From contig WQWN01000003.1 in the NCBI GenBank assembly GCA_009785325.1, positions 24,450 to 88,449 on the forward strand: 64,000 nt of DNA, given 5' to 3'. Below, one piece after another: positions 1,795-61,996 of this stretch (the stretch's first letter is position 1; each line of letters begins with the position of its first letter). The notes under the pieces were generated by a model. The model saw only the letters and a program-made list of their open reading frames with translations. It made no database searches and was not told the DNA's origin. Source of the stretch: Candidatus Saccharimonadota bacterium. Lineage in GTDB: Bacteria > Patescibacteriota > Saccharimonadia > Saccharimonadales > Saccharimonadaceae. Position numbers and translations under genes: made by a program.

Positions 1795-2468
1795 TTCCTC
1801 ACCCCCAGCTCTTCCTCCACTTCACCCATCCGAATCCCCTCCTCCTTCAACCACTCTGCCATCTCCAAAAACACCCCTTCGAACTGCCCCTTCTCGATCC
1901 CATGTACCACCCACGCCTTCCCTAGTGTCAAATTCCCCGCCGCACGCATTTCCAACCTCCGCGACTCCATCCACTCTTCCTCCCGTGGCGTCTCATAATC
2001 CGTCCACCCCTCCTCATCAGCTACCTTCATCTGTAGCACATTCTCCAGTTTATCTATCTGATTACAGAACCTCGCCTCAGCCGACCTATTCTCCTCAAAC
2101 TCCAAAAACAACCCCATCAAATCCTCACCCACACCGAGCATCCCACGGATCTTATCCATCGCCGCATGCTCCATCGCAAATTTATCCTCCTCACTCACTC
2201 CACACCCAGGTGTAATATCCCCAGTAATCGCCTCGCATAATTCATGCGTCGCCAGCATCATCATCACCCGATTCAAATCCACTTCAATATCAAACTCACT
2301 CGCCATCGCAATCGCCAGCATCTGCGTCCCATAAACATGCTCCGCCACACTCTCCATTCGCGGCGCTTTCACACCCCAGACCACCGCACCACTCCGAATT
2401 ACCTCCTTCAATCTCGCCGCCAAAACCCAAAACTCCACCACTCGTCGCTTCTTATCCTTCATTTTCAT
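1791..2468 (-). CDS. HD-domain phosphohydrolase (YfbR-like 5'-deoxynucleotidase family)
   Basis: ESVAEHVYGTQMLA ... LATHELCEAITGDITP matches the metal-binding motif pattern of HD_3 proteins. Confidence 0.6.
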   Translation of the reverse strand: MKMKDKKRRVVEFWVLAARLKEVIRSGAVVWGVKAPRMESVAEHVYGTQMLAIAMASEFDIEVDLNRVMMMLATHELCEAITGDITPGCGVSEEDKFAMEHAAMDKIRGMLGVGEDLMGLFLEFEENRSAEARFCNQIDKLENVLQMKVADEEGWTDYETPREEEWMESRRLEMRAAGNLTLGKAWVVHGIEKGQFEGVFLEMAEWLKEEGIRMGEVEEELGVRK

Positions 2469-3066
2469 CCTTCCTCGCCGCGATCATCGCGCGATATTCT
2501 TTATTTGACACCAAACTCCCTTTCTCAATGAAATCCGTAAACAACTTCCCCTCCAAATGATCCACTTCATGCTGCAAAACATGCGCCACGAACCCACTCA
2601 CCACCTCCTCACATTCTTCTCCACCCCGATCCAAATACTTCACTTTCACCTTCTTAAATCTCATCACCTGCGCCATCGCTGGCTCACCATTCTCATCTTG
2701 CGCCGTACTTACACATCCTTCCCACATCAACTTCGGCTCTCCGTAAGTCTCCACGATCTCCGCATTCACCAGCACCTTCTCAAAAACCTTCCGATTCGGT
2801 CGCACAAGCGTCGGCTTGATCGCGATCACACTGATCGCCATCGATTCCCCCACTTGGTTCGCGCTCAGTCCCACTCCATACTCATTTTCATCGCACGTAA
2901 ACTTAATATCATCAATCAAGCTCTGAATCACCTCTGATCTCACTTCTTCCTCTGTCAACTTCCGACACTTTTGACGCAAAGCCTCATCCCCCGCACCCAC
3001 CAACTTCAACATCTTCGGCCCCCTTCTATCTTCAAAGCCTCCCTCTCTAGATTCTTCCAGCTTCAT
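2452..3066 (-). CDS. def: peptide deformylase
   Basis: All three Def motifs are present: GVGLSANQVG, EGCVS and QHEVDHLEG. Confidence 0.9.
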   Translation of the reverse strand: MKLEESREGGFEDRRGPKMLKLVGAGDEALRQKCRKLTEEEVRSEVIQSLIDDIKFTCDENEYGVGLSANQVGESMAISVIAIKPTLVRPNRKVFEKVLVNAEIVETYGEPKLMWEGCVSTAQDENGEPAMAQVMRFKKVKVKYLDRGGEECEEVVSGFVAHVLQHEVDHLEGKLFTDFIEKGSLVSNKEYRAMIAARKDENEG

Positions 3067-3073
3067 GCACTAC

Positions 3074-3079
3074 ATTATA
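3074..3079 (-). promoter_or_regulatory. -10 TATAAT 7 nt upstream of the def ATG (leaderless-type)
   Basis: The rc of attata at 3074-3079. It lies directly after the terminator at 3090-3122. Confidence 0.5.
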
Positions 3080-3089
3080 CACTCCTTCT

Positions 3090-3122
3090 ATAAAAATGAG
3101 CCGCATTTTTCGAATGCGGCTC
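3090..3122 (-). terminator. intrinsic terminator (10-bp perfect stem GAGCCGCATT/AATGCGGCTC, 5-nt loop, followed by a T-tract on the minus strand)
   Basis: Stem 3098-3107 pairs with 3113-3122. The minus-strand continuation is ATTTTTAT (rc of 3090-3097). Confidence 0.75.
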
Positions 3123-3514
3123 GATGCGTGTTTTTATGCAGAAACACACAAAACTTTTTCGGGAAAAGATTTCATCATCAACCTCATAGACGCAGCCAAC
3201 AAACCACGTTTTATCCATGAAACTATCCAACTTCCTGCTTCGCCCTCGCACGCCCTACTTCCGAACATTCCAGGCGCCGTTCCCGCTCTCCGATTTTCTT
3301 TTATATAGAAAACCTCGACCACGCGACCGCCCTACTCAACCCAACTCCAACATGTTGCTGCTAGTATCTTCCGACCAAGCCGTATCCGCTGTTCTATCGC
3401 AAAAAATCTCGTCAGACTCTTCACTTCTCCAACTTCAACGCAGACCGTAGAACCTCTCTAGCTACTAGAGTTTTCTTTGTAAAGCCTTTCACGCAGCTCC
3501 GGTACGCCGACAGA

Positions 3515-4138
3515 TTACGCTGATTCTTTGTTAAGTCTTTTCTGATGACACACAATCTCCGCGTCAATCACAACAGGATCGTGAACCGTCCCACGAAACA
3601 CTTTTCTCGTAGTCGTAACTCCAAATTCAGAAGTATTAAACCCATATCCTGAGGTATCAACACCCCCAAGCCCAATCAGGCCAAATTTACCACCTTTACT
3701 GACCTTACATAATGCCAATCTCGCTTGCGCCGGTCTTCTCGTGAAATGATCTTCCCGAATGAAGGGATCGTCTGTCGCCGACGCCCACACTATTTCGATA
3801 CTGTCGTAGTTCTTCAAAACAAACTTTCCCGCCCGACAGTCAAACAATCCTCTGTTTCCATTCGGCATTATCACAGGCACAAATTGCGCGCCTTCCTGTT
3901 CATGTAAAAACCTGAACTTACCAAACGGCAAAATAATCTTGTTAACAACCTCCGGGCCATCTTCAATTCTTATCACTCCTTGCAGCTCATCTCTCTGCAA
4001 AATCAGAAACTTCACATGTATCATAGTGCAGGATCTTTCGAACATCCCCCTTACGTCGATCTTGTTACGCGTTCCAGCACCTATTTCAGCAAGTACCCTC
4101 GTCCCTTCTGGCAGTTTCATCTCTTCCCTCCTTGTCAA
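3515..4138 (-). CDS. hypothetical protein (207 aa), no recognisable family
   Basis: Long ORF with an AGGAGGGAAGAG SD-like run before the ATG. Its G/C composition is balanced, unlike the flanking genes. Confidence 0.5.
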   Translation of the reverse strand: MTRREEMKLPEGTRVLAEIGAGTRNKIDVRGMFERSCTMIHVKFLILQRDELQGVIRIEDGPEVVNKIILPFGKFRFLHEQEGAQFVPVIMPNGNRGLFDCRAGKFVLKNYDSIEIVWASATDDPFIREDHFTRRPAQARLALCKVSKGGKFGLIGLGGVDTSGYGFNTSEFGVTTTRKVFRGTVHDPVVIDAEIVCHQKRLNKESA

Positions 4139-4325
4139 CGTGCAAATTTCTTCTGCCTCCAGAATACAGGTGACTTTATCTCAACGCAAGCACGAGCATC
4201 AATAGCAGAGATCCTTATTTGCGCCTATCTTTTCCGCTCTGACTACTCCGCCGTGACCTATTCACATACACAAACCCCACCGCTAACGCCCCCATGATCC
4301 CTAGCCACAAAACTCCCCACCACAT

Positions 4326-5012
4326 CTACTTCTCCTCCTTGTTTTGTTCCAAAATCTCTCCATTCCGCAATCTTGCCCAGTACTTACCCACCACTTTCAC
4401 ATCTTCACCATCAACGACCACTGCACTCCAATCCGACAAAGTATAAACATCCCAATCCACATTCCTAGAAATATCAAAAACTACCACATCTTTCTCATCT
4501 GCCATCAAATTCCCTCCTCGCAGATGCGGCAAAATCGAAAAATCTAACAATTCCAAATATCGCCCCACACCCCAGTCGTCAAACTCACCAAACACTTGCC
4601 TCTGCCATTCCGCACTCACCATCTTACCCAAAATCATCGACCCCGCCGAACTCCCACACCACACTTTTTCCTTTAATAGCTCCGGCAGAATCTCCGAAAA
4701 CCCCGTCTTGTCAAAAACCGTCTTCAGATACTCCGTATTTCCACCAAAACAAAAAATCGCATCGGCTTCACTAATGCGCTCTTGTACCTTATCCAGCGGC
4801 AATGCTAATAAGTTCACTAACTCAAACCCACCAAAACGATGCTTCAAAAAATGCATTCCATCCACAAAAAATGAATTGTCGCCATGCTCGACTGCCACTG
4901 CCTCATTTATCACTGCGAATCTTATCTTCTTCGCAGGTTTTCCGACCAGCTCCTCTAGCTCTCTCGTCTCATCCAGACCCGTAAAATCCGACGAAAACAA
5001 AATCGCCTTCAC
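4326..5012 (-). CDS. peptidase S51 (dipeptidase E-like) family protein
   Basis: FCFGGNTEYL ... CGSSAGSMILG matches the nucleophile-elbow pattern of S51. The GTG start is 2 nt after the lepA N-fragment stop, with the SD inside the lepA end. Confidence 0.7.
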   Translation of the reverse strand: MKAILFSSDFTGLDETRELEELVGKPAKKIRFAVINEAVAVEHGDNSFFVDGMHFLKHRFGGFELVNLLALPLDKVQERISEADAIFCFGGNTEYLKTVFDKTGFSEILPELLKEKVWCGSSAGSMILGKMVSAEWQRQVFGEFDDWGVGRYLELLDFSILPHLRGGNLMADEKDVVVFDISRNVDWDVYTLSDWSAVVVDGEDVKVVGKYWARLRNGEILEQNKEEK

Positions 5013-5014
5013 CC

Positions 5015-5983
5015 CTACTTCCCCTCTCCGAAATACTTCTTCAAACTCACCGTATCTCCCACTCGCGCATCCCGCGTCGTCTTCAAATTCGTCACGATAT
5101 ACCCAATTTCTCCTGTCCCTAACTCATCCATCGGCATCATCCCTGGGCTCAACTTCCCAATCTCCAACGCCAACCCTGAAACCTCCGCCGCCATCATCCG
5201 CACCGCATCCCCCTTTCTCAACTTCCCATCCACTACCCTCACATAAAGCACTACTCCGCGATAATCATCATAATACGAATCAAAAATCAACGCCCGTAAA
5301 GGCCCTTCCGTATCACCAGTAGGCGCAGGTACTCGCTCCACCACCGCATCCAACACCTCTTTCACCCCCATTCCCGTCTTCGCCGAAATCTTCAAAATCT
5401 CATCCTCCCCACACCCCAACAAATTCATCACCTCCTTCGAAATCTTCGGCACATCCGCCGCTGGCAGGTCAATTTTATTTAGCACAGGAATTATCTTCAA
5501 ATCCTGCTCCATCGCCAGATATACATTCGCCAAAGTCTGCGCCTGAATCCCCTGACTCGCATCCACCACCAGAATCGCCCCCTCGCACGCCTGCAAACTC
5601 CGACTCACTTCGTAACTAAAATCCACATGCCCTGGCGTATCAATCAAGTTCAGTTCATAACTACCATTCAACGATTTTATATCTTCGATACTATGCGAGG
5701 AATCAGGAGTAGCGGAGTGAGCGGTATTTGACATACCGCGATCGAGCAACGCATCTGATGACAAAGTAGAGTGCGAAGCTACGAAATCGTACTTCATCCT
5801 CACCGGCGTCAATTTTATCGTAATCCCCTTCTCCCTCTCCAGCTCCATCGAATCTAGTAGCTGCTCTTTCATCTCTCGCTTATCCACCGTTGACGTCATC
5901 TCCATCATTCTGTCCGCCAGCGTCGACTTCCCATGATCAATATGCGCAATTATGCAAAAATTTCTGATCCGATCCAAACTCAC
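5015..5983 (-). CDS. lepA: elongation factor 4 (LepA), N-terminal half only (GTPase domain plus domain II), carrying a ~35-aa insert
   Basis: [30 protein letters not shown] and LNKIDLP are present. It ends ...[17 protein letters not shown], at the domain II/III linker. Confidence 0.9.
5669..5773. repeat. in-frame, bias-breaking insert in the LepA GTPase domain (putative RPE/MITE-like coding insertion)
   Basis: Encodes [35 protein letters not shown] between conserved KYDF.. and ..[11 protein letters not shown]. It is G-rich on the + strand, unlike its surroundings. It shares AGCTACGAAA (5777-5786) with the insert at 36613-36750. Confidence 0.45.
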
Positions 5984-7608
5984 TTCGCTCTCCTCGCTAC
6001 AGCTTTTTTAACTCTATTCACCACCGGCACCATTTCTTCCAGCTTCAGCAACCAACTCAGTCCTACGTAAACCCCCAGACTCACTCCAGCAATCAACGCA
6101 AACCTCGGGAAAGTATCCCAAAAACTCGGCTCATCTGCAAGCAGCGGCATCATCCTCGTCATTCCATACGCCACCATTCCCGCCAGCGCACTAGCAATCA
6201 CCATCTTACTACCCGCTCGCCAAAACTCTTGATTCAAAAGTCCTCTTTCGCGCCGACCCAAAATCACCGCCAATATCACCACTTCCAATAGTGCCGTAAT
6301 CGATTGAGCTATCGCCATCCCATACACCCCCATTCCCCACCTCAGTGCAAAAGTTATCGCCAACCCGATATTAAGTGCGACGACAAACACCGACACAAGC
6401 AGCGGCGTCCGCGTATCCTGCCTTGCATAAAAACTCCTCGACAAAATATGATAGACCGACCTCGCAAACAAACTCACTACTAGCGCCCCCAAAATCCCCG
6501 CAATTACAGGATCACCGCCCACCACGATAAAGTTCACTACATACCCACGCGTAAAATAAGTAATTGCCGCTACAGGCATCGCGATCCAAATAATCGTCCG
6601 TATCGCCATCCGCACCGTCCGTCGAAACTCTTCAATTCTTCCCCCACTCAGATCCTCCGTCATCTTCGGGAAAAACGCCGTACTGATCGCCACCCCGACC
6701 AGATTCACAGGCATCATATGTAGCGCGAGCGCCTGCTGATACATCCTCACACTTCCACTTGCCATTCGACTCGCAATATTAATTTCCACCAGACCCTTCA
6801 CATAATCCAGTCCCTGATGCAAACTCCTCGCAGGCAACAACTTCAAAACCCGCCGAAAACCATGATTTCGCCAATTAATCACAAATTCATAATCAAATCC
6901 CAGCCCCACAAGTCCGATCACACTCACCACCAGCTGCATCGCCGCTCCCAAAACCACTCCTAACGCCACTCCCATAATTCCTCCCTCAAACACCTGCCAC
7001 CCAAAGATATTTATTCCCCCCGTAAACCAAACTATCCCGATGATAATCCCAATATTATAAATCGCCGGCGCCAACGCCGAAAATACAAACCTCCCCACCG
7101 CCTGTTGCATACTCGCAATCACCGTCGCTATAGCAAAAAGAAACGGATTGATCGCAATCACCCTCATCATACTAATCGCCAGCGCCCGCGTCGCCTCATC
7201 AAACCCCGCCCCTACCACATACGTCACCAGTGACTCCGCGAAAATAATAATCAAAACACTCGCCACTAGCGTAATGATCGCAAACAAATTCAGCAAACTC
7301 GACGACAATTCCCATGCCGCTCTCCGTTGCCCTGCTGCCATTCGCTGATTAAACACAGGTATGAACGTCACCGCCAGCGCCCCACTCACCAAAATAAAGA
7401 ACATAAAATCAGGAATCACAAACGCCGCAGTGTACGCATCTGCTCCTGTCGGATAAGTATGTAGATAGTTCGCGTTAAACAACCGATCTCGAAAAATCCC
7501 GAGAAGCGCCGAAACAAACGTCGAGCTCGCCAACACCATCGCCGCGACTTTAATCGATAGCTTTGCATTCGCCTTATCCACGACATTCTTAAGATTTACT
7601 TTCTGCAT
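5980..7608 (-). CDS. murJ: lipid II flippase MurJ/MviN
   Basis: 542-aa polytopic membrane protein. The N-terminal segment [21 protein letters not shown] and the overall architecture are typical of MurJ. Confidence 0.85.
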
Positions 7609-7617
7609 CCTCTTTTA

Positions 7618-7623
7618 ATTCTA
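7618..7623 (-). promoter_or_regulatory. -10 TAGAAT 9 nt upstream of the murJ ATG
   Basis: The rc of attcta at 7618-7623. Confidence 0.4.
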
Positions 7624-7674
7624 CACCAATCCACCCCCAGTTCAAAAAGCAAATCTTAGCTCTATAAAACTAGA

Positions 7675-8127
7675 CTATTTTGCCAAAACTCCCACCGCTT
7701 CAGGCGCCTCCATCTCATCCGCAAAAAACATACTATACCTCTCTGTATTGAACCTCAGTAAATAGAAATTCGGATCTTCAGGCCCACTCCACATCCCCGC
7801 CATCGGCTCAAACCAATTCTCCTTTTTCACATCCATATCCTCCACTACCTCCACTGTCCCTACGAGATTTATATTATACCCACTCGAACTCAGACAAATA
7901 CTCGCACGGTTATTCTTCGCGATTCGCTTTGCCTTGTTACTGTCTGGACTAGTAGCTAACGTAATCCACTTTATTCCGTCCGCCCTCGCAATCGTAAACG
8001 TCGAACTTGTCGGATACCCATCTTCGTCAATCAAAGAAATCACTGCGCACCCTTCCATCCCACCGCCAATATATCCCGACTTCGAACTAATCAATTCACT
8101 CGCTCGCTCAATCACTTTTTCACTCAT
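7675..8127 (-). CDS. pyridoxamine 5'-phosphate oxidase-like family protein
   Basis: A split-barrel-like pattern (ASICLSS..INLVGTVEVVEDMDVKKENW). The start was chosen at the ATG 5 nt after GGAGG (rc of 8133-8137) rather than the track start at 8148. Confidence 0.55.
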   Translation of the reverse strand: MSEKVIERASELISSKSGYIGGGMEGCAVISLIDEDGYPTSSTFTIARADGIKWITLATSPDSNKAKRIAKNNRASICLSSSGYNINLVGTVEVVEDMDVKKENWFEPMAGMWSGPEDPNFYLLRFNTERYSMFFADEMEAPEAVGVLAK

Positions 8128-8183
8128 ACTACTCCTCCTTTTTCTCAACTATATCACACCCCCTCCACCAGTTCCGAATCAAG

Positions 8184-8192
8184 TGGTATAAT
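8184..8192 (+). promoter_or_regulatory. extended -10 TGGTATAAT upstream of pfkA
   Basis: Motif seen directly in the sequence. It is followed by a ~40-nt leader with an AAAGG SD. Confidence 0.5.
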
Positions 8193-8233
8193 GTTCCTAG
8201 TTCATCAACCAACATAAACAGAAAGGTTCAGGA

Positions 8234-9355
8234 ATGACAAAATTCAAAATTGGCATACTCACAGGCGGCGGCGACGCACCAGGATTAAACGCCGCAATCT
8301 ACGGCATCGTCAAAACTTGCCTCACACGATTAGACTGTGAAGTCATCGGCTACAAGCTCGGCTATCGCGGACTCTACGAAAACGATTTCGTCACCCTCAC
8401 CGACGAACGCATTTCTGGCATCCTCCATCGCGGCGGCACCATCCTTCGCAACTCCAACAAAGACAATCTTTTCAACTTCCCCATCACTGACGAACACGGC
8501 AACACCACCTACCAAGACGTCTCCAGCGTAGCTGTTGAGAATCTTCAAAAAGAAGGTGTCGAAATCCTCATTGTCCTCGGCGGCGATGGTACTCTCACTT
8601 CCGCCCGCGACTTCGCCCGAAAAGGCGTTCGTGTCATCGGCGTTCCGAAAACCATAGACAATGACCTCGCCTCCACTGACATCACTTTTGGCTTCGACAC
8701 TGCAGTCAATATTGTCACCGAAGCCCTAGGTCGACTCCACACCACCGCCGAGTCCCACCACCGCGTCATCATCACTGAAGTCATGGGCCGCAACGCAGGC
8801 TGGATTCCTCTCCACGCAGGTATCGCAGGTAGTGCCGACGTCATTCTCCTCCCCGAATTCCCATACGACATCCAAAAAATTGTCGCCAAAGTAAAATCCC
8901 GCTCAGAACAGGGCAAACATTTCACTATCATCGTCGCAGGCGAGGGAGCAAAACCAAAAGACGGAGATATTGTCGTCTCCCAAATCGTCAAAGACAGTCC
9001 TGACTCCGTTCGTCTCGGCGGCATTGCAGCCAAACTTGCTTACGACCTCACTCCTCTCATAGATCACGAAGTCCGCAGCGTCGCCCTCGGCCACACCCAG
9101 CGCGGCGGCGAAACTTCCGCTTTTGACCGCATCCTTTCCCTCCGCTACGCCCATCACGTCGCTACTATGATCGAACAGCAACAGTTCGGCCAAATGGCTA
9201 CTCTCAGAAACGGTAAAATGTGTAGTGAAAGCCTCGAAGACGTAGTCGGCAGTTCCGCAACCGGCAGCACCTCAAAAGGCACCAGTAAACCCGTCACCCC
9301 CGACCACGAACTCGTCCAAGTCGCCCTGGGGCTCGGCATCACTTTCGCCGACTAA
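8234..9355 (+). CDS. pfkA: 6-phosphofructokinase
   Basis: ILTGGGDAPGLNAAI, LGGDGT, PKTIDNDL, MGRNAGW and GHTQRGG are present. Confidence 0.9.
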   Translation: MTKFKIGILTGGGDAPGLNAAIYGIVKTCLTRLDCEVIGYKLGYRGLYENDFVTLTDERISGILHRGGTILRNSNKDNLFNFPITDEHGNTTYQDVSSVAVENLQKEGVEILIVLGGDGTLTSARDFARKGVRVIGVPKTIDNDLASTDITFGFDTAVNIVTEALGRLHTTAESHHRVIITEVMGRNAGWIPLHAGIAGSADVILLPEFPYDIQKIVAKVKSRSEQGKHFTIIVAGEGAKPKDGDIVVSQIVKDSPDSVRLGGIAAKLAYDLTPLIDHEVRSVALGHTQRGGETSAFDRILSLRYAHHVATMIEQQQFGQMATLRNGKMCSESLEDVVGSSATGSTSKGTSKPVTPDHELVQVALGLGITFAD

Positions 9356-9365
9356 CATCTCCCAC

Positions 9366-10394
9366 CTACTCTATCCAAGCAAACCGGCTATCCTCAAACT
9401 CCAAATACCCTTCCAGCAACTCTCGACACACCTCACTCACTTCATCTAGCCTTGCCGCCTTCCCATCCACCTCCACTAGTGGAACCACATATCTTTTCTT
9501 CGCTTTAATTCCCCCGATAAAATACCCCTTCGCAGGCCTCTTACTACCCCTCTTCAGCACCTCCGCCCTCTCAAATCTCTCCCACTCACTCCTCAGCTCC
9601 GCATCCACCTTAATCAACTTTATAATCTCCGCTTCCGACTTCTCGTACAGATCTCCGTGCGTCAAAACTCCACTCTCGATCAGCCGCCTCACATTGTCCG
9701 CCACAAACTGCAACACGAACTTATCTTCGTTCGCATCCATCGCCAGACTATACTTAACACATCCATCATAAAACCTCTCCGCCACCTCCAGACTCCCGAA
9801 CCCAATCTCATCCTCACCGTCCTCATTCACCAGCACCACTACATCGCGGTAAATCTCCGCTACCTCCTCCAAACTCCAAAAACCACACCAAATCAGCCCC
9901 GTATGTAAAACCCCCTCCAGTCGATCCACACACAATTTCGGCTTCTTATTCTCCACCACCGTATACTTCTGAATCTCCGCCACCTCCTCCACACTGACCT
10001 TATCCTCACTCAAACACCGTAAAAGCTCCTCCGAACCCAACAAAATATCCTTTACATCTCTCTCTGCGCTCTCCTGATCCAGTGCATCTCCCAGCATAAA
10101 ATCAACACAATGACTAAAAGCAGGTGTCCCTAAGTCATGAAACAATGCACCCAGAGTCTGCGCCTTGTCCTGTGTAAAATTCCACGTCATCAACGCCGTC
10201 GCAACACTATGATCCAACCGCGAATACCAATACTTACAATTATGCAGCCTCGTATACTCACACCCACAAAACTGCCCTATCTTACTTAACCGCTTCAATA
10301 CCGACACCTCTAAATACTTATCGATAAATTTCGGCCATTCCTCACTCAAAACGTCAAAATACTCAGTAATCTCCTCATTCGAAACTGGACACAT
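9366..10394 (-). CDS. HD-domain-containing protein
   Basis: RLDHSVATAL ... ALFHDLGTPAFSH matches the H..HD motif. The ATG follows GGAGG. Confidence 0.6.
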   Translation of the reverse strand: MCPVSNEEITEYFDVLSEEWPKFIDKYLEVSVLKRLSKIGQFCGCEYTRLHNCKYWYSRLDHSVATALMTWNFTQDKAQTLGALFHDLGTPAFSHCVDFMLGDALDQESAERDVKDILLGSEELLRCLSEDKVSVEEVAEIQKYTVVENKKPKLCVDRLEGVLHTGLIWCGFWSLEEVAEIYRDVVVLVNEDGEDEIGFGSLEVAERFYDGCVKYSLAMDANEDKFVLQFVADNVRRLIESGVLTHGDLYEKSEAEIIKLIKVDAELRSEWERFERAEVLKRGSKRPAKGYFIGGIKAKKRYVVPLVEVDGKAARLDEVSEVCRELLEGYLEFEDSRFAWIE

Positions 10395-10404
10395 CACACC
10401 TCCC

Positions 10405-12261
10405 CTAATCGTGCAGTTTCACATCCTTCGGCAACACCGTCCCCGTCAACACCTTCTTCACCTCTTCTTCTTCGAGAGTCTCCTTCGCCAAAAGCTCTTT
10501 CGCGAGCGCATCTACGAACTTCTTATTCGCCGTCAATATCTTCTCCGCTCGCACTACCGCCTCCTTAATCAACCCTGCCACTTCTTTGTCGATCTCTTCC
10601 TGCGTCTTCTCGCTAAACGGTTTCGCAATCCCCGCGAAAAACCCTTCATCATCCCTGTGAAACACCTGATCTTTCAAGTTCACACTCATCCCTTCTTCCA
10701 CCACCATCGCCCGCGCCGTATCTGTCGCTATCCTTAGATCCGATCCTGCACCCGTAGTCACACCACCTTCACCGTATTTCATCTTCTCCGCCTGTCGACC
10801 ACCCATCGCCCGCGCCAACACATCCTTGAATTCATATATACTCTTGTAGCTTCGATCCTCAGGCGGGATAAACCAAGTTACACCACCAGTATGTCCTCGC
10901 GGAATGATCGTCACTTTATGTACAGGATCACTATCAGGCAATACATGTCCTACCACCGCATGTCCCGCTTCATGATACGCCGTCAACTCCTTCTCATGAT
11001 CACTCATAACTTTCGACTTCCGCTCTGGCCCGATCGCTACTTTCTCAAAAGCTTCCACCAAATCATCATTCGTAATCGTTTTTCGATTCCCGCGCGCCGC
11101 GATAATCGCCGCCTCATTCGCGATATTCGCGAGATCCGCACCAGACGATCCAGCCGTCTTCGCCGCCATCGCCTCGAGATCCACACTTGAATCCGCTGGT
11201 TTCTTTTTGAAATGCACCTTCAGAATCTCCAGTCGATCCACTCGCTCCGGCAGTGTCACTTTTATATGCCGATCAAATCGCCCAGGTCTGAGAAGCGCAG
11301 GATCCAACATATCCAATCGGTTCGTCGCCGCCATCACAATCACTCCCGTCTCATTCTCAAACCCATCCATCTCCACCAAAATCTGGTTCAAAGTCTGTTC
11401 ATGCTCCTCGCGCCCACCGCCACCACGCGACTCCCTTTTCCTCGCCACCGCATCAATCTCATCGATAAATATAATCGACGGCGCATTTTTCTTCGCCTTC
11501 TGAAACAGGTCTCTCACCCTCGACGCGCCCACCCCCGCAAACATCTCCACAAACTCAGACCCCGAAATTGAGAAAAACGGCACACCAGCCTCTCCCGCCA
11601 CAGCCCTCGCCATCATCGTCTTACCAGTTCCAGGATTTCCGACCAGCAGCACACCACTCGGAATCCTCGCCCCCAGCTGCTCATATTTCTTCGGATGCTT
11701 CAAAAAATCCACCACCTCATTCAAGTCCTGCTTAGCATTCTCATTTCCCGCAATATCCGTAAACAGCACTTTCTTCTTATCTGCCCCATACAACTTCGCT
11801 TTACTCTTCCCAAACGACATCGCCTGCGAATTCTGCCCCTGCGCCTGCCTCATCATAAACACAAAAAACCCAATAATTATCAGGGTAGGCAAAGCAAATA
11901 TCGCCACATTCCCAATTATCTCACCCGTATTCGACGGCTCGCTCACCGTAATCTCCACCGGCGCATCCAGTTCCAGTCCTTGATCGAAAATACTCGCGCT
12001 AGAATCCCGCCGCGCCATCTCTGTCGGATACTCCTCACCCCTCAGCGTCACGATCACTTCATTCCCACGGATCTCCAACTTCTCAACCTCTCCTGCATTC
12101 GCCCGCCGCACCACATCCGAGATCGGCACCGTCTCCAAATTTTGATTCGGCATAAACAACGAAATCAGAGCTAATCCGATCAAAAACATCATCACCCAAA
12201 AAACCGTCAACCTCGCGAAATTCAAATTTTTCTTCTTCTGCGCCTTACCACTTACAGCCAT
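10405..12261 (-). CDS. ftsH: ATP-dependent zinc metalloprotease FtsH
   Basis: [44 protein letters not shown] and N-terminal TM segments are present. Confidence 0.95.
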
Positions 12262-12288
12262 AAATTCATCATCCTTTCAAATCCATCA

Positions 12289-13428
12289 TTAACCTTCCAA
12301 TTCTATCACATCTCGCCCCAGTTTCACCAACACGTCACCAGGCAAATTAAACTTCTTCCCATTCTCATAATTTCTAATCGCATCCAAAAACCGCAAAATC
12401 TGCTCCCTCATCGCCCTCACACTATTCACCTCCAACCATCCACGCAAAATCTCCACCGCCACATCATCATCCATCCCTCGATAAGACTCCCGCTGCACCA
12501 CATCCTCACCCTCCACGATCAGCCCCACGATTTCATCAATCTCCCGCTTCAACTTCAGCTGATTCTCATATAAAGCGAAAATTTTATCTCGGCACAAGCC
12601 ACTCTCATTTGACTGGGATTTCGCCAAGAGTGACGACTGAACGAACTCCATTCCGCGCCCAGGCGGACGAGAGTGTCTTGAAGACGATCGTAACCTCTTT
12701 CTCACTCGATTCCTCAAATAATCCTGACTACTATTCGTCGAATCCTCCCGCCACTCCAGTCCATTCCTCATCGCATACTCCAAAATCTCTTCCTTCCACA
12801 CCCCCAGCATCGGCCGCACTACCCCAGGACTATCCAGCGGCACCAGCCCCCTCCACCCCGTCCCCCGGATCAAATTTATCGCAACCGTCTCCACTAAATC
12901 ATCCGCATGATGCCCCGTCCAAATCTCCCCATCCTCACCCGCCACTTCCCATAAAAATCTATATCTTCTCTCCCTCGCCAACTCCTCACTCGCCCCCGCA
13001 CCCAACTCCTCTTTCCGACTCACGAACTCCACTCCGTATCTCTCTGCCAGCCCCCTCACAAACTCCTCATCCTCATCGCTATCTTCCCTGATCCCATGGT
13101 TAAAATGCGCAATTATCAAATCTGATAATTTCTCGCACTCTAGACAAGCCGAGAAGCTTCTGTTGGTTGGATTCTGAGATGTTTTTAACCTGTCTGACGT
13201 CAAGCACTCTAAACTCGCCGAGAGACTTACGTTGCTTGAGTGAAGAAATGTCTTTAGCTTTTCTGAGCTCAGAACTTTAGTCTCATTGCGAGAGTTTACG
13301 TGCGAGAAGTCAGACAAATTACAGACACATGCTGCCGCCATATCCAGCATCACCACCGAATCCACCCCCCCACTCACCGCCAAAACCACCCTCCTTCTCT
13401 CCCTATCTTTCGCCAATTCATTCGTCAT
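12289..13428 (-). CDS. tilS: tRNA(Ile)-lysidine synthase, carrying two atypical inserts
   Basis: The PP-loop VLAVSGGVDSVVM, IIAHFNHGIR, GHHADDLVET and REDSTNSSQDYLRNRVR are present. Confidence 0.8.
   Translation of the reverse strand: MTNELAKDRERRRVVLAVSGGVDSVVMLDMAAACVCNLSDFSHVNSRNETKVLSSEKLKTFLHSSNVSLSASLECLTSDRLKTSQNPTNRSFSACLECEKLSDLIIAHFNHGIREDSDEDEEFVRGLAERYGVEFVSRKEELGAGASEELARERRYRFLWEVAGEDGEIWTGHHADDLVETVAINLIRGTGWRGLVPLDSPGVVRPMLGVWKEEILEYAMRNGLEWREDSTNSSQDYLRNRVRKRLRSSSRHSRPPGRGMEFVQSSLLAKSQSNESGLCRDKIFALYENQLKLKREIDEIVGLIVEGEDVVQRESYRGMDDDVAVEILRGWLEVNSVRAMREQILRFLDAIRNYENGKKFNLPGDVLVKLGRDVIELEG
12595..12690. repeat. in-frame bias-breaking insert in tilS (second, C-proximal)
   Basis: Encodes about SSSRHSRPPGRGMEFVQSSLLAKSQSNESG right after the conserved DYLRNRVRKRL. 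It is G-rich on the + strand and contains GTGACGAC. Confidence 0.35.
13126..13329. repeat. in-frame bias-breaking insert in the tilS PP-loop domain (~68 aa) with internal repeats
   Basis: Lies between MLDMAAA and DLIIAHFNHG. It has an internal direct repeat (13135-13157 vs 13204-13226, 18/23 identical) and a perfect 14-bp palindrome TTCTGAGCTCAGAA (13261-13274). It shares CCGAGAGACT (13218-13227) with the ABC-F insert. Confidence 0.45.
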
Positions 13429-13430
13429 TG

Positions 13431-13439
13431 TGCTACAAT
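13431..13439 (+). promoter_or_regulatory. extended -10 TGCTACAAT 8 nt upstream of the ATG at 13448 (leaderless-type)
   Basis: Seen directly. No SD lies between the motif and the ATG. Confidence 0.55.
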
Positions 13440-13443
13440 TATC
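13438..13443 (-). promoter_or_regulatory. -10 GATAAT 9 nt upstream of the tilS ATG, overlapping the divergent + strand -10
   Basis: The rc of attatc at 13438-13443. Confidence 0.4.
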
Positions 13444-13447
13444 TCAT

Positions 13448-14419
13448 ATGTCAGGTGGGCAAAAAACCAAATCAAATAATCTCGAGTCAAACGACGCCGA
13501 AACGCTGTTCCAGCAGCTCATCGACCTCGTCCGCACGCAGAACCTCCGCGACATCCACCTCGACCCCCGCGACGGCCACTACCTCATCCGCACCAAATCT
13601 TCCACCGCTCGCCTCGCTACTCACGCCGAGATTTCCAAAGTCCAAGCCACCGACCTCATCGACCTCCTCTTCATAAAATCTCACCTTCACCCCTCCAGTC
13701 GCCCCATCCCTCAGGACGCCCGCCTCTCCCACGCTAACTTCCTCATCCAACTCACCACTCTTCCAACTATCCTCGGACCAAAAATCTTCCTCCACTTCAC
13801 TGACCAGACCAAACTCACACGTGACCTCTCCAAACTCGGCTTCACCCCAGACCAACTCCCCATCGCCGAATCAATCACAAAACTCCCCTCCGGACTCATT
13901 CTCGTCCTCGGCGCCGGCAAAACCACCACGATGTTCTCTCTCCTCTCTCTTTTCGACGCAAGCAAGCTCAGCATCTCCACCGTCGAAACTCGCCACACCT
14001 ACCGCCTCCCAGGAGTCAACCAATTCATCGATACCACAGGTCAAATCTCCCGCCAAGAACAAGCCTTCGCCGCCGCCATGCGCCAGCATTCTGACGTCAT
14101 CCTCCTCAGTCAAATCGACTCGACTCGCCTCGCCGAACTCTCCCTCGACGCCGCCAGCAACCGCCGCATCATTATCACCTCACTCCCCATCACCGATCCT
14201 TACTCCGCCGCCGACTTCCTCACCCACCTCGGCACCACTCCGTTCCTCACCCTTCACAACCTCCGCCTCGTTATCTCTCAGCAACTCGTCCCCACCACCG
14301 ATTCCACCTCTTCTTTCACCGGTCGCTTCGACCTCCTCGAGATCAACGACCATTACCGTCAACTTTTCCTCGCTGGCCTCACCCCCACAGAGATCCGCCA
14401 CACCCTCAACTCCAAATAA
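13448..14419 (+). CDS. PilB/GspE-like secretion ATPase homolog with degenerate catalytic motifs (probable pseudo-ATPase)
   Basis: LILVLGAGKTTTMFSLL replaces the Walker A. MRQHSDVILLSQID replaces ..DPDVIMVGEIRD. NRRIIITSL replaces TGHLVLSTLH. The start is taken at the first ATG after the tilS start. Confidence 0.55.
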   Translation: MSGGQKTKSNNLESNDAETLFQQLIDLVRTQNLRDIHLDPRDGHYLIRTKSSTARLATHAEISKVQATDLIDLLFIKSHLHPSSRPIPQDARLSHANFLIQLTTLPTILGPKIFLHFTDQTKLTRDLSKLGFTPDQLPIAESITKLPSGLILVLGAGKTTTMFSLLSLFDASKLSISTVETRHTYRLPGVNQFIDTTGQISRQEQAFAAAMRQHSDVILLSQIDSTRLAELSLDAASNRRIIITSLPITDPYSAADFLTHLGTTPFLTLHNLRLVISQQLVPTTDSTSSFTGRFDLLEINDHYRQLFLAGLTPTEIRHTLNSK

Positions 14420-14442
14420 CCCCTTGCGTACCCATGCACACC

Positions 14443-14451
14443 TAGTATAAT
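14443..14451 (+). promoter_or_regulatory. -10 TAGTATAAT 7 nt upstream of the ABC-F ATG (leaderless-type)
   Basis: Seen directly. Confidence 0.55.
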
Positions 14452-14458
14452 CACACCC

Positions 14459-16243
14459 ATGCTCCTCCACGTCCAAATCACAGAAAAATCCTTCGGCTCC
14501 AAAAGCCTCTTTTCTCACATTAATTTTTCCGTCAACGACGGCGAAAAAATCGGTATCATCGGACGAAACGGTATCGGCAAAACCACTATCTTCAACATCC
14601 TCTCAGGCAAAGACACTGACTTCACAGGCGAAATCATCCAGCGCCGCGGCACCACTGCCGTCGCTACCTCCCAGGAATACCACGATGTCAAAAACCTCAC
14701 TACCACCCAGTACATCCTCTCCGGCCTCCCCGATTACGCCCGCCTCTCTGGGATCATCAACAACTTCTCCGAAATCACCACTCCCACTCACAAACAACTC
14801 ACCGAATTCTCCGACGCCCTCGAACTTTTTTCAAACAAAGACTACTACCACATCGAAGATCAAGTCCGCGAAGAACTCAAATCTTTCCAGCTCGAGTCAC
14901 ATGCCGACCAGCTTTTCTCCTCCCTCAGCGGCGGCCAAAAACGCCTCAGCGAAGTCATCAAAATCATGCACTCAAACGCCCATATCGCCCTCGTCGACGA
15001 ACCAACCAACTTCATGGACTACGTCGCCAAAAACCAATTCATCGAATGGATGAAGTCCGCCCCCGAAGCCATTCTCATCATCACCCACGACCGCGACGTA
15101 CTCCGCGAAGTCGACCGCATCATCGAAATCAAAGACCAAACAGCCATCAACTACAAAGGTAACTACGAATTTTATCTCCGCGAAAACACCTCCCGCACCT
15201 CAAACGCCATGACTGACTACGAGCTCGTCGAGCGCCGCATCGAGAATCTCAAACAAAAAATCCTCGACTACCAGCGCCTCAAAGAAAAAGCCCGCAACCC
15301 CGCCACTATTCAGCAGTTCAAACGCCTCGAAAACACCTCTCGAAAAGAACTCTCCGAACTCCAAAAAACCGAAAAACCCAACTTTTGGATCGACCGCAGT
15401 AGCGTCGAGCAGCTCGGCTACAAAGACACCGACCGCTACGACAAATACAAAGCCAAAAACGTCAAACTCGCCCTCAAATCCACCGAATCAAAATCTAAAA
15501 AGCTAATTGCCGAAGCCACCGACCTCTCCGTCGGCTACGACTCCCCCCTCTTCAAAAACATTAATTTCCAACTCCGCGAAGGCGAAGCTCTCGAAATCCG
15601 CGGCCGCAACGGAGCCGGCAAAACCACTCTAGTTCGCGCACTACTCTCGCTCAGCGATACAGACAGTAAGCGCAAGCTATTAGTTTCCGAGAGACTGGAA
15701 ACATCTGTGACGACAGATGTGGCTGAAATGGATGAGGCTACTCCGCATGACGATGCGCGAGTACCTCAGAATGCGCTCTCGGAAGCTAATGGGCTTAGCA
15801 GTCCGCTTACAATTTTCCACGGCGAATCCCACCTCGACCCTCACGTCCGCCTCGGCATCTACCACCAGGAAGTCGACACAAGGTACTTCGACCTCCTCCT
15901 CCCAGACGCCATCGACTGCCTCCACCAAGACGCAGGAATCATCATCAACGATCGCCGCATCCGCCAACTCATGTCCGACTATCTTTTCACCGACTCCGAC
16001 CGCGATGTTCTCGTCAAAAATCTCTCTGGTGGCCAAAAAGCCCGCCTCCAAATCATCGCCATGCTCGCCAACGACCCCACTCTCCTCATCCTCGACGAAC
16101 CCACCTCTCACCTCGACCTCCCAAGCATCGAGGAGCTCGAGCAAGCCCTCCTCCGCTACCACGGCGCCGTCCTCTACATTTCCCACGACAACTACTTCCG
16201 TCACGCCCTCCCCGCCCAAGTCCTCCAAATCCCCGACCGCTAA
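14459..16243 (+). CDS. ABC-F family ATPase (two ABC domains, no TM domain), with an insert in the second domain
   Basis: GIIGRNGIGKTT, LSGGQKRL and ALVDEPTN are in domain 1. IRGRNGAGKTT, LSGGQKARL and LILDEPTSHLD are in domain 2. Confidence 0.85.
   Translation: MLLHVQITEKSFGSKSLFSHINFSVNDGEKIGIIGRNGIGKTTIFNILSGKDTDFTGEIIQRRGTTAVATSQEYHDVKNLTTTQYILSGLPDYARLSGIINNFSEITTPTHKQLTEFSDALELFSNKDYYHIEDQVREELKSFQLESHADQLFSSLSGGQKRLSEVIKIMHSNAHIALVDEPTNFMDYVAKNQFIEWMKSAPEAILIITHDRDVLREVDRIIEIKDQTAINYKGNYEFYLRENTSRTSNAMTDYELVERRIENLKQKILDYQRLKEKARNPATIQQFKRLENTSRKELSELQKTEKPNFWIDRSSVEQLGYKDTDRYDKYKAKNVKLALKSTESKSKKLIAEATDLSVGYDSPLFKNINFQLREGEALEIRGRNGAGKTTLVRALLSLSDTDSKRKLLVSERLETSVTTDVAEMDEATPHDDARVPQNALSEANGLSSPLTIFHGESHLDPHVRLGIYHQEVDTRYFDLLLPDAIDCLHQDAGIIINDRRIRQLMSDYLFTDSDRDVLVKNLSGGQKARLQIIAMLANDPTLLILDEPTSHLDLPSIEELEQALLRYHGAVLYISHDNYFRHALPAQVLQIPDR
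15653..15815. repeat. in-frame bias-breaking insert in ABC-F domain 2, containing a perfect hairpin
   Basis: Encodes SDTDSKRKLLVSERLETSVTTDVAEMDEATPHDDARVPQNALSEANGLSSP between the Walker A and the conserved IYHQE. The hairpin is ACATCTGT-GACG-ACAGATGT at 15701-15720. I counted G=45 and C=35 over 15653-15808. Codons are G-ending, while the host gene uses C/A-ending codons. Confidence 0.5.
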
Positions 16244-16932: not shown

Positions 16933-17703
16933 TTAGTTATCCTGCTCAGCCTGCCATCTTGCCAGTGCGTCTTCCAAGTAACGGAAGTTGCTCTTTTCGC
17001 CAGCACGCACCGTCGCCCAAAGCGGCAGTTCCGGGTTATCTCTATTCTCTTCGATCCACACTTCATACCGATCTCTCGGATCGACTACGATGCCATGGAT
17101 GATAGTGAGTGTCCCTGTCGCATCGTCAAAACCATACGACAAGATTACTCTGAGACCATCTCGCATGGCGGTCGTCACGGTTTCCTCATCTCCCGATCGA
17201 GTCGTCGTACGAATCAGATCGCGCATCTTCTGCGCGAACCACTCCGTATCCTCCGGAACTTGATGTGATTCATACCTCATATAGGCAGATCTCAGCGGCA
17301 CTTCCAATCCACCATCCATGAGCCAGTACTCTGGGCGCAAAAACCGCGCCTCGATGATACCGTCATAATGAATAATATTAACACTGGTCCCGCCTCCTGT
17401 TTTCGCAATGATCATTCCGTCCACCGGGCGAAGCAACAACGTGCCACGCTCGGTGTCATACCCGACAATCCTCAGATTGCCGAGGTTTCCCATTGCCCGT
17501 CCGTCACGGATACTGAGCGTATCCGCAATTTGCATGTAAACACAGTTTTGAGCCTCTTCCGCCACAGCCGGCGCCGACGGTATCTCCATCGTAACTCCAA
17601 CCGCATATACCGGCTGTCCTAAAGACACCATCCCCCATACACCCACACCGCCGAAAAGCACCAAACAAGCCAACATTACAGCCCCTACACGCCCTGCTTT
17701 CAT
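16933..17703 (-). CDS. hypothetical secreted protein (signal peptide), no recognisable family
   Basis: N-terminal MKAGRVGAVMLACLVLFGGVGVWG. Balanced G/C composition. Confidence 0.5.
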   Translation of the reverse strand: MKAGRVGAVMLACLVLFGGVGVWGMVSLGQPVYAVGVTMEIPSAPAVAEEAQNCVYMQIADTLSIRDGRAMGNLGNLRIVGYDTERGTLLLRPVDGMIIAKTGGGTSVNIIHYDGIIEARFLRPEYWLMDGGLEVPLRSAYMRYESHQVPEDTEWFAQKMRDLIRTTTRSGDEETVTTAMRDGLRVILSYGFDDATGTLTIIHGIVVDPRDRYEVWIEENRDNPELPLWATVRAGEKSNFRYLEDALARWQAEQDN

Positions 17704-18000: not shown

Positions 18001-18651
18001 CTATCCAGCACCGCTGATCGCTGTGTTAATATCTTCCCCGTAGTAATCCCGATACCTCTCCCGAGCCCAGCGCTCATCACACATGTCTGCAACCCACTGT
18101 TTGAAGTCAAACTTCCATGGTCTAATTTGCAGAATTTCCAGTTCAGCTCCCGGTCTCCCGGTTATTGTGCCTTCCTCATCATACGCAAACCTTTCAGTCA
18201 CAACAAGGAGTGCCACGGTCATATTGTAGGAGGTGAGCATTGCAGTATTAATGATGTGTTCTTTGATGCTCTTGTTCCCATCATCTACACACTGCCTCCC
18301 GTTGAGTATAGTTTTCCCGCGTTTACGACGAAACCCATACACCTCAATGGCATAAACCGCCTGGCATATGCCTTCGCCTCCTTTTTCAGGCAGTGAGAAC
18401 TCCGGCTCCAGATCAAGCGCAGATTCAACCAAAACCTTCCTCTTGACTCCGAGAACATCCAGAAGATCTAAGTCCACCACAGCTTTTTCAGAGCCCTCCG
18501 CAGCTTCTCCGCTGCTCAGTTTTAAACTCCAGTACGGAGTTTCACTGTTTCTGTAGAAATACAGCCCAAACCGCCTCATTAACCGTTCTTCAGACCTCTT
18601 CAGTCCTTTCTTTCTTTTGCTATTACCGAAAATACCCAGCACAAAATCCAC
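18001..18651 (-). CDS. hypothetical protein (about 213-216 aa), no recognisable family
   Basis: Long ORF after GGAGGAGG. The start is ambiguous (GTG at 18651 or GTG at 18642). Confidence 0.5.
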   Translation of the reverse strand: MDFVLGIFGNSKRKKGLKRSEERLMRRFGLYFYRNSETPYWSLKLSSGEAAEGSEKAVVDLDLLDVLGVKRKVLVESALDLEPEFSLPEKGGEGICQAVYAIEVYGFRRKRGKTILNGRQCVDDGNKSIKEHIINTAMLTSYNMTVALLVVTERFAYDEEGTITGRPGAELEILQIRPWKFDFKQWVADMCDERWARERYRDYYGEDINTAISGAG

Positions 18652-52610: not shown

Positions 52611-52636
52611 CCCTCGCGTCAAATTCACCAGCACCC

Positions 52637-52666
52637 TTGACTCTCCCCGCCTGTAATCAGTATAAT
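52637..52666 (+). promoter_or_regulatory. tRNA-Asn promoter (TTGACT, 18-nt spacer, TATAAT)
   Basis: Consensus hexamers end 11 nt before the tRNA 5' end. Confidence 0.7.
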
Positions 52667-52677
52667 CATTCAAGTAT

Positions 52678-52752
52678 TCCCCGGTAGCTCAATGGTGGAG
52701 CAAGAAGCTGTTAACTTCGAGGTTACTGGTTCGAGTCCAGTCCGGGGAGCCA
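52678..52752 (+). tRNA. tRNA-Asn (anticodon GTT) with encoded CCA
   Basis: Folded by hand. Acceptor TCCCCGG/CCGGGGA; D arm GCTC..GAGC; anticodon loop CTGTTAA; T arm ACTGG-TTCGAGT-CCAGT; discriminator G followed by CCA. Confidence 0.93.
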
Positions 52753-52763
52753 TACTGAATTCT

Positions 52764-52785
52764 GGTGCTGCGAAGCACCTTTTTA
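52764..52785 (+). terminator. intrinsic terminator after tRNA-Asn (GGTGCT-GCGA-AGCACC followed by TTTTTA)
   Basis: Seen directly. Confidence 0.8.
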
Positions 52786-52885
52786 TATTGAGAATTGACT
52801 CTAACCATACTTCCAGCTGATATTACCTCGTCCATTTTTACTATTGGAATGAAGTACTTATTGGGCTACAATTTAACTTCGGAGA

Positions 52886-53341
52886 ATGGCACGACTAACA
52901 CACCACGAGGTTAAGATGTATATAGTAAAAATTAAAGTCGATAAATCAGAAATAGACGGCAGGGGAGTTTTCGCATCGGAAAGGATTAAGAAAGGTAAAA
53001 CGGTTTGGGTTTACGACCCAGAACATGATCTTTCATTTGACCAAGAAGAATTCGATAGGCTTGACTCCGACGAGAAAGAGCGGCTTCATCATTCAGCATA
53101 CCTGTCGCCATGGACAGGCTTGCGGATCAGCCCGCCAGCAGGTGATCCAGCCAACTACACGAACCATAGCACCGAGAATAATTTATCAGTACGTTACGAT
53201 AAAAGCGTTTCGCCAGAACTATATTTCGTAGCAAATCGAGATATTGAAGTCGGCGAAGAACTTACGAATAACTATCATGAGTTCGATGAAATAACTAGAA
53301 AGACGAAACCAGGCTGGGCAAAGGAAGTGGATGCGAATTAA
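52886..53341 (+). CDS. SET-domain protein (putative lysine methyltransferase)
   Basis: IDGRGVFASERIKKGKTV, ANYTNHSTENN (NHS motif) and VGEELTNNYHEF (ELxxxY motif) are present. The start may instead be the ATG at 52916. Confidence 0.65.
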   Translation: MARLTHHEVKMYIVKIKVDKSEIDGRGVFASERIKKGKTVWVYDPEHDLSFDQEEFDRLDSDEKERLHHSAYLSPWTGLRISPPAGDPANYTNHSTENNLSVRYDKSVSPELYFVANRDIEVGEELTNNYHEFDEITRKTKPGWAKEVDAN

Positions 53342-53546: not shown

Positions 53547-53561
53547 AAACTAAGCGAGTTT

Positions 53562-61853: not shown

Positions 61854-61996
61854 TAAAACCTCTTCTCTCGCAGGATTTCGCACACGCACAACAGCTCACA
61901 GCTACGCACGATTACATTTTTATAATATTATTTATTTTGAGAATTCCACGACTCTATACACCAAACATTAGCATACTTCTTACTGAAAGGCAAAAT

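Follow-up and report, generated by a model that had tools for sequence, protein, structure and literature searches.

An in-frame palindromic insert in an ABC-F ATPase gene of Saccharibacteria as a probable member of a family resembling Rickettsia palindromic elements

The 64,000-nucleotide (nt) stretch of Candidatus Saccharimonadota bacterium DNA analysed here (contig WQWN01000003.1, positions 24,450 to 88,449; hereafter the window) carries an ABC-F family ATPase gene that is interrupted in frame by a strongly palindromic insert. We read this segment as one copy of a family of T-shaped palindromic DNA elements of ~120–150 nt, which is present in a group of Saccharibacteria and resembles the Rickettsia palindromic elements (RPEs), and we give this reading a probability of about 0.6. 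On this best reading, each element of the family has a long outer stem that encloses two inner hairpins. The resemblance to RPEs had been proposed in a preliminary description of the window, and it is supported by the palindrome, the stop-free frame, the absence of the segment from the nearest orthologues, the predicted protein loop and a family that is detected with covariance models. The coordinates of the element, its parts and its relatives are collected in Table 1.

Results

The ABC-F protein of the window is 100% identical to a Candidatus Saccharibacteria protein at NCBI. When 120 orthologues were aligned, 53 residues were found between the motifs RALL and LTIFHG in the window protein, and 4 in most orthologues. 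In a neighbour-joining tree of these orthologues calculated with the insert columns removed, the window protein was the sole insert carrier in a ten-member clade, the nine other members (P0002–P0007, P0009, P0010 and P0015) having 4–5 residues at the site. The ~54 codons that had been described as lacking a counterpart in ABC-F proteins are therefore real and absent from the nearest orthologues, although their number came down to 51–53. A more distant ABC-F clade has inserts of 7–94 residues at the identical place with sequence unrelated to the window insert, and one nested subclade within it has lost the insert. With the nearest orthologues lacking an insert and the distant ones having inserts of unrelated sequence, the orthologue alignment, proposed earlier as a check, does not turn the segment into an ancient loop.

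The host frame is the sole stop-free + frame through the insert, and the other two + frames contain 2 and 6 stops. The recount of bases over 15653–15808 (G=45, C=35, A=43 and T=33) was identical to the G and C counts given before. At codon position 3, the insert has G 31%, C 13% and T 35% against G 6% and C 64% in the remainder of ABC-F, and the enrichment of G at this position was significant (Fisher p=3e-7). The figures behind the reversed codon bias of the preliminary description hold, but the bias is not in itself a sign of foreign DNA, because most of it is a by-product of self-complementarity, which pushes the G and C counts, and likewise the A and T counts, towards equality. The + strand of the whole window contains 22516 C (35.2%) and 8910 G (13.9%), i.e. 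~1 G per 2.5 C, and the GC skew is about -0.43 in all the 1-kb bins whichever strand carries the genes. Since this disparity is independent of gene orientation, the codon usage is mirror-imaged between the + strand genes (ABC-F and the Wzy-like protein) and the - strand genes (FtsH, TilS, MurJ and the LepA-like GTPase; all by Pfam). On related contigs, the GC skew ranged from -0.17 to -0.39. A weaker G/C strand disparity is known in some Microgenomates (C 29.8% / G 15.0%; PMC7143001), and no report of such a disparity in Saccharibacteria was found in the literature searched.

In the AlphaFold2 model, residues 399–447 have a predicted local distance difference test (pLDDT) score of 26–39 and no secondary structure, and they are flanked by a helix (385–395) and a strand (451–459). 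The insert-encoded peptide is predicted to form a disordered surface loop that is compatible with the fold of the protein. Furthermore, an independent Logan assembly of the same organism (SRR10512955, locus L132) was identical to the window at 2289–15721 over 13,433 nt with no mismatches, and a single-assembly artefact can therefore be discounted for the 5' half of the insert. This contig terminates directly after the perfect 8-bp hairpin at 15701–15720, and the palindromes of such elements may break assemblies.

Table 1. Coordinates of the ABC-F element, its parts and related inserts in the window and in other Saccharibacteria loci.
Feature	Sequence	Position	Strand	Score	Remarks
ABC-F family ATPase gene	window	14459-16243	+		594 aa; two ABC domains + linker; Pfam ABC_tran x2, ABC_tran_Xtn
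In-frame protein-level insert	window	~15653-15808	+		51-53 codons, ~residues 399-450; between the helix after the second Walker A and the next beta strand
Insert-encoded peptide	window				includes LETSVTTDVAEMDEATPHDDAR
Palindromic element proper	window	15665-15812	+		148 nt, T-shaped fold; limits from fold and covariance-model match; seed of model R1
Outer stem P1, 5' arm	window	15666-15693	+		forms a 28-bp helix by pairing with 15776-15810
Outer stem P1, 3' arm	window	15776-15810	+		partner of 15666-15693
Inner hairpin P2	window	15697-15724	+		core 15701-15708/15713-15720, perfect 8-bp stem; loop GACG 15709-15712
Inner hairpin P3	window	15733-15768	+		15 bp; loop GACG 15749-15752; best-conserved helix of the family alignment (helix 4)
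Wzy insert, second family member	window	36630-36754	+		in frame in O-antigen ligase-like (Wzy_C) membrane protein gene 35944-37416 (Pfam)
tilS palindromic in-frame insert	window	13152-13322	-		gene 12289-13428 (-); after PP-loop helix; one long hairpin
R1 match	L003	9939-10077		54 bits, E 4.5e-12	intergenic, upstream of ABC-F; full-length
R1 match	L003	16524-16669		36.3 bits	in frame in dnaX; full-length
R1 match	L052	1419-1535		31 bits	intergenic; orthologue of the L003 9939-10077 copy; full-length
R1 match	L055	2526-2672		28.1 bits	ABC-F, same protein site, antisense to gene; full-length
R1 match	L054	4068-4214		23.2 bits	ABC-F, same protein site as L055, antisense to gene; full-length

Folding of 15665–15812 as RNA gave a minimum free energy of -69.8 kcal/mol and z scores of -6.3 to -7.7 against dinucleotide shuffles, with 0/200 shuffles as stable. 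The folding check that had been suggested thus returned a strong imperfect palindrome, in which the perfect hairpin ACATCTGT-GACG-ACAGATGT described before was confirmed at 15701–15720. With DNA parameters, the + strand gave z -5.9 and the - strand z -6.3, both strands folding alike. In a scan of the 64 kb, no other 150-nt segment folded as stably as the element (-66.1; mean -18.3, standard deviation 9.8). Its stem-loop-forming size of 148 nt lies in the range of RPEs (about 100–150 bp), and its 28-bp outer stem is of the kind expected of the terminal inverted repeats of transposable elements of the miniature inverted-repeat type (MITEs), the terminal sequences varying between copies (helices 1-2).

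Known structured RNAs were also searched for. At the gathering score of Rfam 15, tRNA-Asn alone was reached in the window; at permissive thresholds, the best matches of the inserts had E 0.5 or worse and were to unrelated small nucleolar RNA and long noncoding RNA models, and the copies of the relative gave nothing. A hammerhead-like three-way junction was rejected on reading the junction, which has no CUGANGA/GAAA core in register. Among the 14 in-frame elements, the antisense strand folded better in 8, and the G-U pairs numbered 31 in sense against 52 in antisense; there being no folding advantage of the sense strand, a role of the structure at the mRNA level is unlikely and was rejected. 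Counted on the C-rich strand, the bases left unpaired in eight elements were A 100, G 81, T 53 and C 52, which is unlike the host strand (C 35%, G 14%) and indicates that the elements are away from compositional equilibrium. A fold-back copy of the adjacent host DNA was rejected as the origin of the insert, the arms and unpaired bases not being host-like in composition.

The covariance model R1, made from the sequence and fold of the ABC-F element alone, was searched with filters off on Saccharibacteria contigs and gave the full-length matches listed in Table 1, and an exhaustive R1 search of ~99 kb of unrelated control loci reached a maximum of 13.8 bits. The iterated model R2, trained on six sequences, matched the Wzy insert over its full length with 27.4 bits (E 1.4e-5; E 1.8e-4 in 1.13 Mb). 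In 1.13 Mb this insert was the sole match besides the sequences used for training and L004, which duplicates one of these, and the R2 controls had a maximum of 13.2 bits. The relationship of the ABC-F insert to the one at 36613–36750, which had been claimed from shared words, is borne out by this match. Beyond the ABC-F gene of the window, the in-frame copies of the family lie in Wzy, dnaX and another ABC-F. The motif CTGT-GACG-ACAG in P2 is common to the ABC-F and Wzy copies, and the apical hairpin class C-Y-G-T N4 A-C-R-G is also found in the L003 and L054/55 copies, its background being 11 sites per 601 kb of control loci. The family copies were found in both gene orientations, and the significant model matches are all on the C-richer strand at any gene orientation (two in the window, two in L003, and those in L052 and L054/55). 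For ~five independent elements, this uniform placement has p ~0.06 by our own calculation and is suggestive.

The pattern GAAAC(N0-2)CTGTGACGACAGRW gave 40 matches in 185,579 reference genomes and none in Saccharibacteria; as the window itself was unmatched, its source genome is outside the collection and the scan is uninformative on copy number. A word-index protein search with the 57-residue insert returned no candidates, the source protein included, and is a weak negative. An exhaustive HMMER search with the same insert gave one spurious match to a tandem-repeat protein in a library whose clustering at 50% identity limits the test.

Two further segments were observed on the related loci. 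L003 has a third strong palindrome (13502–13640, z -8.7) between a SPOUT methyltransferase gene and rplJ, which is a single long hairpin unmatched by the family model and adjoins a sub-threshold L10-leader match. The family model gave a borderline match (17 bits on both strands) at L133 1728–1879, where a spacer separates the T2SSE and PRC-barrel genes of a relative; ABC-F holds this position in the window.

The pairing of the palindromic elements is kept while their sequence changes. In the family alignment A9, 95.2% of the cells were paired and both sides had changed in 39/53 pairs, although A9 was fitted to the model, so that these pair counts lean towards structure. Its covariation score was 0.819 against 0.229 in shuffles (0/500) and <=0.141 in slid controls. 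Between L003 and L052, the flanks are ~90% identical by our own reading of the alignment and the orthologous spacer elements are largely rewritten, with a long, near-perfect outer stem folding in both. Similarly, among species pairs of the distant ABC-F clade, L005/L050 had 4 double compensatory changes and 0 broken pairs among 27 consensus pairs, and L006/L049 had 3 such changes, again with none of its 26 pairs broken.

The words reported earlier as shared between the window inserts were each found in place. Those common to ABC-F and Wzy are TACAGA (15658 and 36614), GAAAC (15698 and 36690), CTGTGACGACAG (15705 and 36695), ATGGATG(A/G) (15728 and 36727) and GCGAGTAC (15757 and 36674). The colinearity claimed for the two inserts is partial, however, because GCGAGTAC precedes the hairpin in Wzy but follows it in ABC-F. 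By our own word-frequency arithmetic, shared 6–8-mers occur at chance frequency for two 150-nt sequences. The block GAAAC(N0-2)CTGTGACGACAG was the sole word match clearly above chance, its local alignment between ABC-F and Wzy having p ~0.001–0.003 against shuffles, and so the proposed shuffled-control comparison favours relatedness for this block. Distant inserts of unrelated sequence, further copies of the element and a main shared block exceeding the shuffles are the opposite of what had been named as contrary to an RPE-like element. The fold z of the Wzy insert was -5.9.

The tilS insert (fold z -2.4 to -3.5) shares the 10-mer CCGAGAGACT with ABC-F (13218 and 15687), as described before, but it is unmatched by R1 and R2, so this link has little weight; the insert is structured and palindromic, yet of a different type, and was rejected as a family member. 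Many Saccharibacteria TilS proteins have variable inserts (0 to ~90 aa) directly after the PP-loop helix. Long palindromes of unrelated sequence were found at this site in the window and in a relative (L133 3001–4053; 237 nt, z -5.7), and another private insert of the window TilS, its second, lies near 12571–12690. The segments at 5687–5778 (lepA), 18205–18268, 41541–41722 and 61552–61697 were rejected as family members, being unskewed and unstructured (z ~0; lepA z -0.3). A third GAAAC..GTGACGAC word at 17169–17180 on the - strand was judged a chance occurrence, since G-rich words are expected in the genes of that strand.

Discussion

If the segment is an RPE-like element, a copy would have inserted into ABC-F within the lineage of the source genome and would have survived by landing in a permissive loop of the second ATPase domain, immediately behind its Walker A helix. 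With the frame kept and no stop, it would be translated as a disordered, hydrophilic loop of 51 residues. Because its arms have to be complementary, its G-versus-C balance would depart from that of the C-rich host strand, the unpaired bases being purine-rich besides. During drift, the arms may remain complementary by selection for the hairpin or by arm-to-arm correction through template switching in replication. The distribution of the copies suggests a spread by copying or transposition. Most likely, the element is selfish or neutral DNA and not a host function, a lack of function that we infer.

Several observations weigh against such an element, besides the fitting of A9 to the model. Target-site duplication was not seen at the ABC-F or Wzy borders on inspection by eye, and no transposase family was found in the 49 window open reading frames (ORFs) scanned, i.e. 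all the long ORFs of the window apart from frame-shadow ORFs and the one for the 984-aa repeat protein. Near-identical copies were not found, and the copies detected by the models are only two in the 64-kb window and two in 21.7 kb of the relative. Within the window, the link between ABC-F and Wzy is a single block of 17/19 nt. The pair in L003 and L052 reflects vertical inheritance and not movement. The pairwise similarity of the L003 copies is not significant, nor are most of the plain pairwise alignments of elements; with significant model matches beside such weak alignments, the family is recognisable only by a structure-aware model. In the distant ABC-F clade, insert lengths are near-continuous from 7 to 94 residues and no insert has a significant model match, and such lengths fit growth and shrinkage in place as well as insertion.

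The main alternative is a palindrome of local origin, which would have been born and grown where it now lies, at a tolerant loop, through replication errors of the fold-back or template-switch kind, would never have moved, and would have been maintained by the same process. We consider this rather unlikely. In many Saccharibacteria, this ABC-F loop does hold unrelated palindromic inserts, with fold z of -1.9 to -6.4 for eight inserts of different lineages in the distant clade and of -3.6 to -5.0 for L054/L055 in another lineage. A like pattern is seen at one TilS loop (L133, z -5.7), and the insert lengths form a near-continuum at both loops. The stem changes between related species (L005/L050 and L006/L049) preserve pairs, and template switching, which has been discussed for mitochondrial coding palindromes, can yield paired changes in a single step (PMC6649704). 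The lack of a detected transposase also agrees with a local origin. Such an origin leaves unexplained, however, the full-length, same-polarity model matches of 23–54 bits at unrelated loci and genomes, the controls and the reverse strands of the foreign copies giving <=14 bits, and it leaves unexplained the shared apical hairpin motif. Moreover, a fold-back copy should resemble the neighbouring DNA, and the arms and unpaired bases are unlike the local C-rich host sequence.

A structured element selected by the host, whose hairpin would function as RNA or single-stranded DNA (ssDNA), for example in mRNA processing or pausing or as a strand-specific replication or priming signal, appears improbable. 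It would agree with the pairing preserved through sequence turnover, with the occupation of the same ABC-F site in several lineages and with the placement of all the significant model matches on the C-richer strand, although this strand bias rests on ~five independent elements (p ~0.06). The better antisense folding in 8/14 elements argues against a role in mRNA, and no Rfam family was matched. Furthermore, the nearest relatives are without the insert, one subclade of the other ABC-F clade has lost it, and copies occur in unrelated genes and spacers.

The probability is slightly lower still that the elements are strand-specific ssDNA hairpins tied to an unusual replication of genomes with extreme G/C disparity. 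Their orientation to the replication strand would then be fixed, and they would be mobilised by an unrecognised hairpin-recognising ssDNA enzyme or act as priming or structural signals. The repeated capture of the ABC-F and TilS loops would in that case mean targeting, beyond tolerance.

An ordinary lineage-specific loop expansion or recent foreign DNA without special structure, with coincidental hairpin and shared words, is very improbable, as the variable nature of this loop in the ABC-F family, the chance level of most shared short words and the unstructured state of other unskewed inserts of the window (lepA 5687–5778, z -0.3) are contradicted by the fold z of -6 to -8 with 0/200 shuffles as stable and by covariance-model matches that are significant at other loci and absent from the controls.

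The RPE-like element can be compared with four known systems. RPEs (Ogata et al, 2000, 2002) are hairpin repeats that, as summarised in PMC10969869, occur between genes and in frame in unrelated housekeeping genes. The likeness extends to the size of ~100–150 bp with a stable hairpin, intergenic as well as in-frame placement in unrelated genes, an extra peptide, predicted here, at a tolerated place of the protein, presence in some orthologues and absence from close ones, and no transposase of its own. The Saccharibacteria, members of the Candidate Phyla Radiation, are another phylum, and no sequence relation to RPEs was established. Unlike RPEs, their copies are far more diverged and are recognised as a family by a structure-aware model alone, their T-shaped fold includes two inner hairpins, and the same protein site is occupied in several lineages and in both gene orientations. 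RPEs form sequence families, each with a consensus, a conserved peptide and many dispersed copies per genome, whereas primary-sequence similarity among the Saccharibacteria copies is weak. A conserved encoded peptide was not found for the family in weak tests on two protein libraries. The Saccharibacteria elements keep their pairing, whereas RPEs lose repeat identity over time (PMC6649704). The likeness appears to be one of behaviour, and membership in any Rickettsia RPE sequence family (RPE-1 to RPE-10) is not claimed.

MITEs are likewise small and non-autonomous with complementary ends, and they can carry an open frame and fuse in frame with host genes. In contrast, the Saccharibacteria copies have no conserved termini, target-site duplication was unseen, a partner insertion sequence was not found in the window (64 kb of an 88.9-kb contig), and the conserved part is an inner hairpin and not the termini. 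Repetitive extragenic palindromic (REP) sequences and REPINs are short hairpin modules that build larger hairpins, some inside genes (PMC3733652), and GACG, the complement of the CGTC tag of some REPs, recurs in the Saccharibacteria element. CGTC-tagged REPs, which include two RPE families, have no transposase dedicated to them (PMC3733652). However, GACG is in loops here, and the REP tag (GTAG or CGTC) is at the foot of an 8–9-bp stem (PMC3733652); no high-copy REP-like unit of 20–40 bp was present. A REP-associated tyrosine transposase (RAYT) or Y1 transposase had no match in the window.

The mitochondrial coding palindromes of Nematomorpha are long inverted repeats inside translated genes whose pairing is actively kept, with gains and losses between species and with template switching or arm conversion proposed for their maintenance (PMC6649704). 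In those genes the repeats are perfect, and each arm codes for conserved protein sequence (PMC6649704). The Saccharibacteria palindrome is an extra, non-conserved, disordered, imperfect and branched insert without counterpart in orthologues, and it is also found between genes.

The best-documented in-frame palindromic repeats are those of Rickettsia, and repeats inside genes are known from scattered cases in other bacteria. A full-text literature search for Saccharibacteria with palindromic or miniature inverted-repeat terms gave no report of such elements, and on our best reading an RPE-like repeat family is new for this phylum. If so, ultra-small episymbiotic bacteria would also tolerate and propagate hairpin DNA in essential genes (ABC-F, DnaX, TilS and Wzy), and such DNA would be a source of new disordered protein loops. 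It would also be a practical hazard, as one independent assembly stops exactly at the hairpin, the lengths of orthologues differ by 50–90 residues and composition scans flag the segments as foreign. In these genomes, nature would provide a test of the way in which palindromes withstand extreme strand-specific mutation bias, whether by selection, arm-to-arm correction or constant re-insertion.

Other features of the window

Some further features of the window were observed. The lepA gene is apparently split into two - strand ORFs ~3.7 kb apart, of which 357–1316 encodes 322 aa with the GTPase and domain 2 and 5015–5983 encodes 319 aa with EFG_C and LepA_C; the interval holds genes for an HD-domain protein, a peptide deformylase and a peptidase S51, among others. 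Paralogues with RCC1 repeats and a TIG domain (28639–30240 and 32140–33681) have a GC skew near zero or positive, unlike the remaining window, and this pair has 165-nt internal repeats and was possibly acquired recently. An unskewed block at 52631–53590 contains tRNA-Asn (52678–52752) and a SET-domain ORF (52886–53341) with a eukaryote-like methyltransferase fold, and may be an integration spot. The 984-aa protein encoded at 58935–61889 (-) contains ~17 degenerate repeats of 23–27 residues (...GGxFTMYxGEIxxN...), has an unskewed N-terminal segment (61552–61697) and is probably a surface protein.

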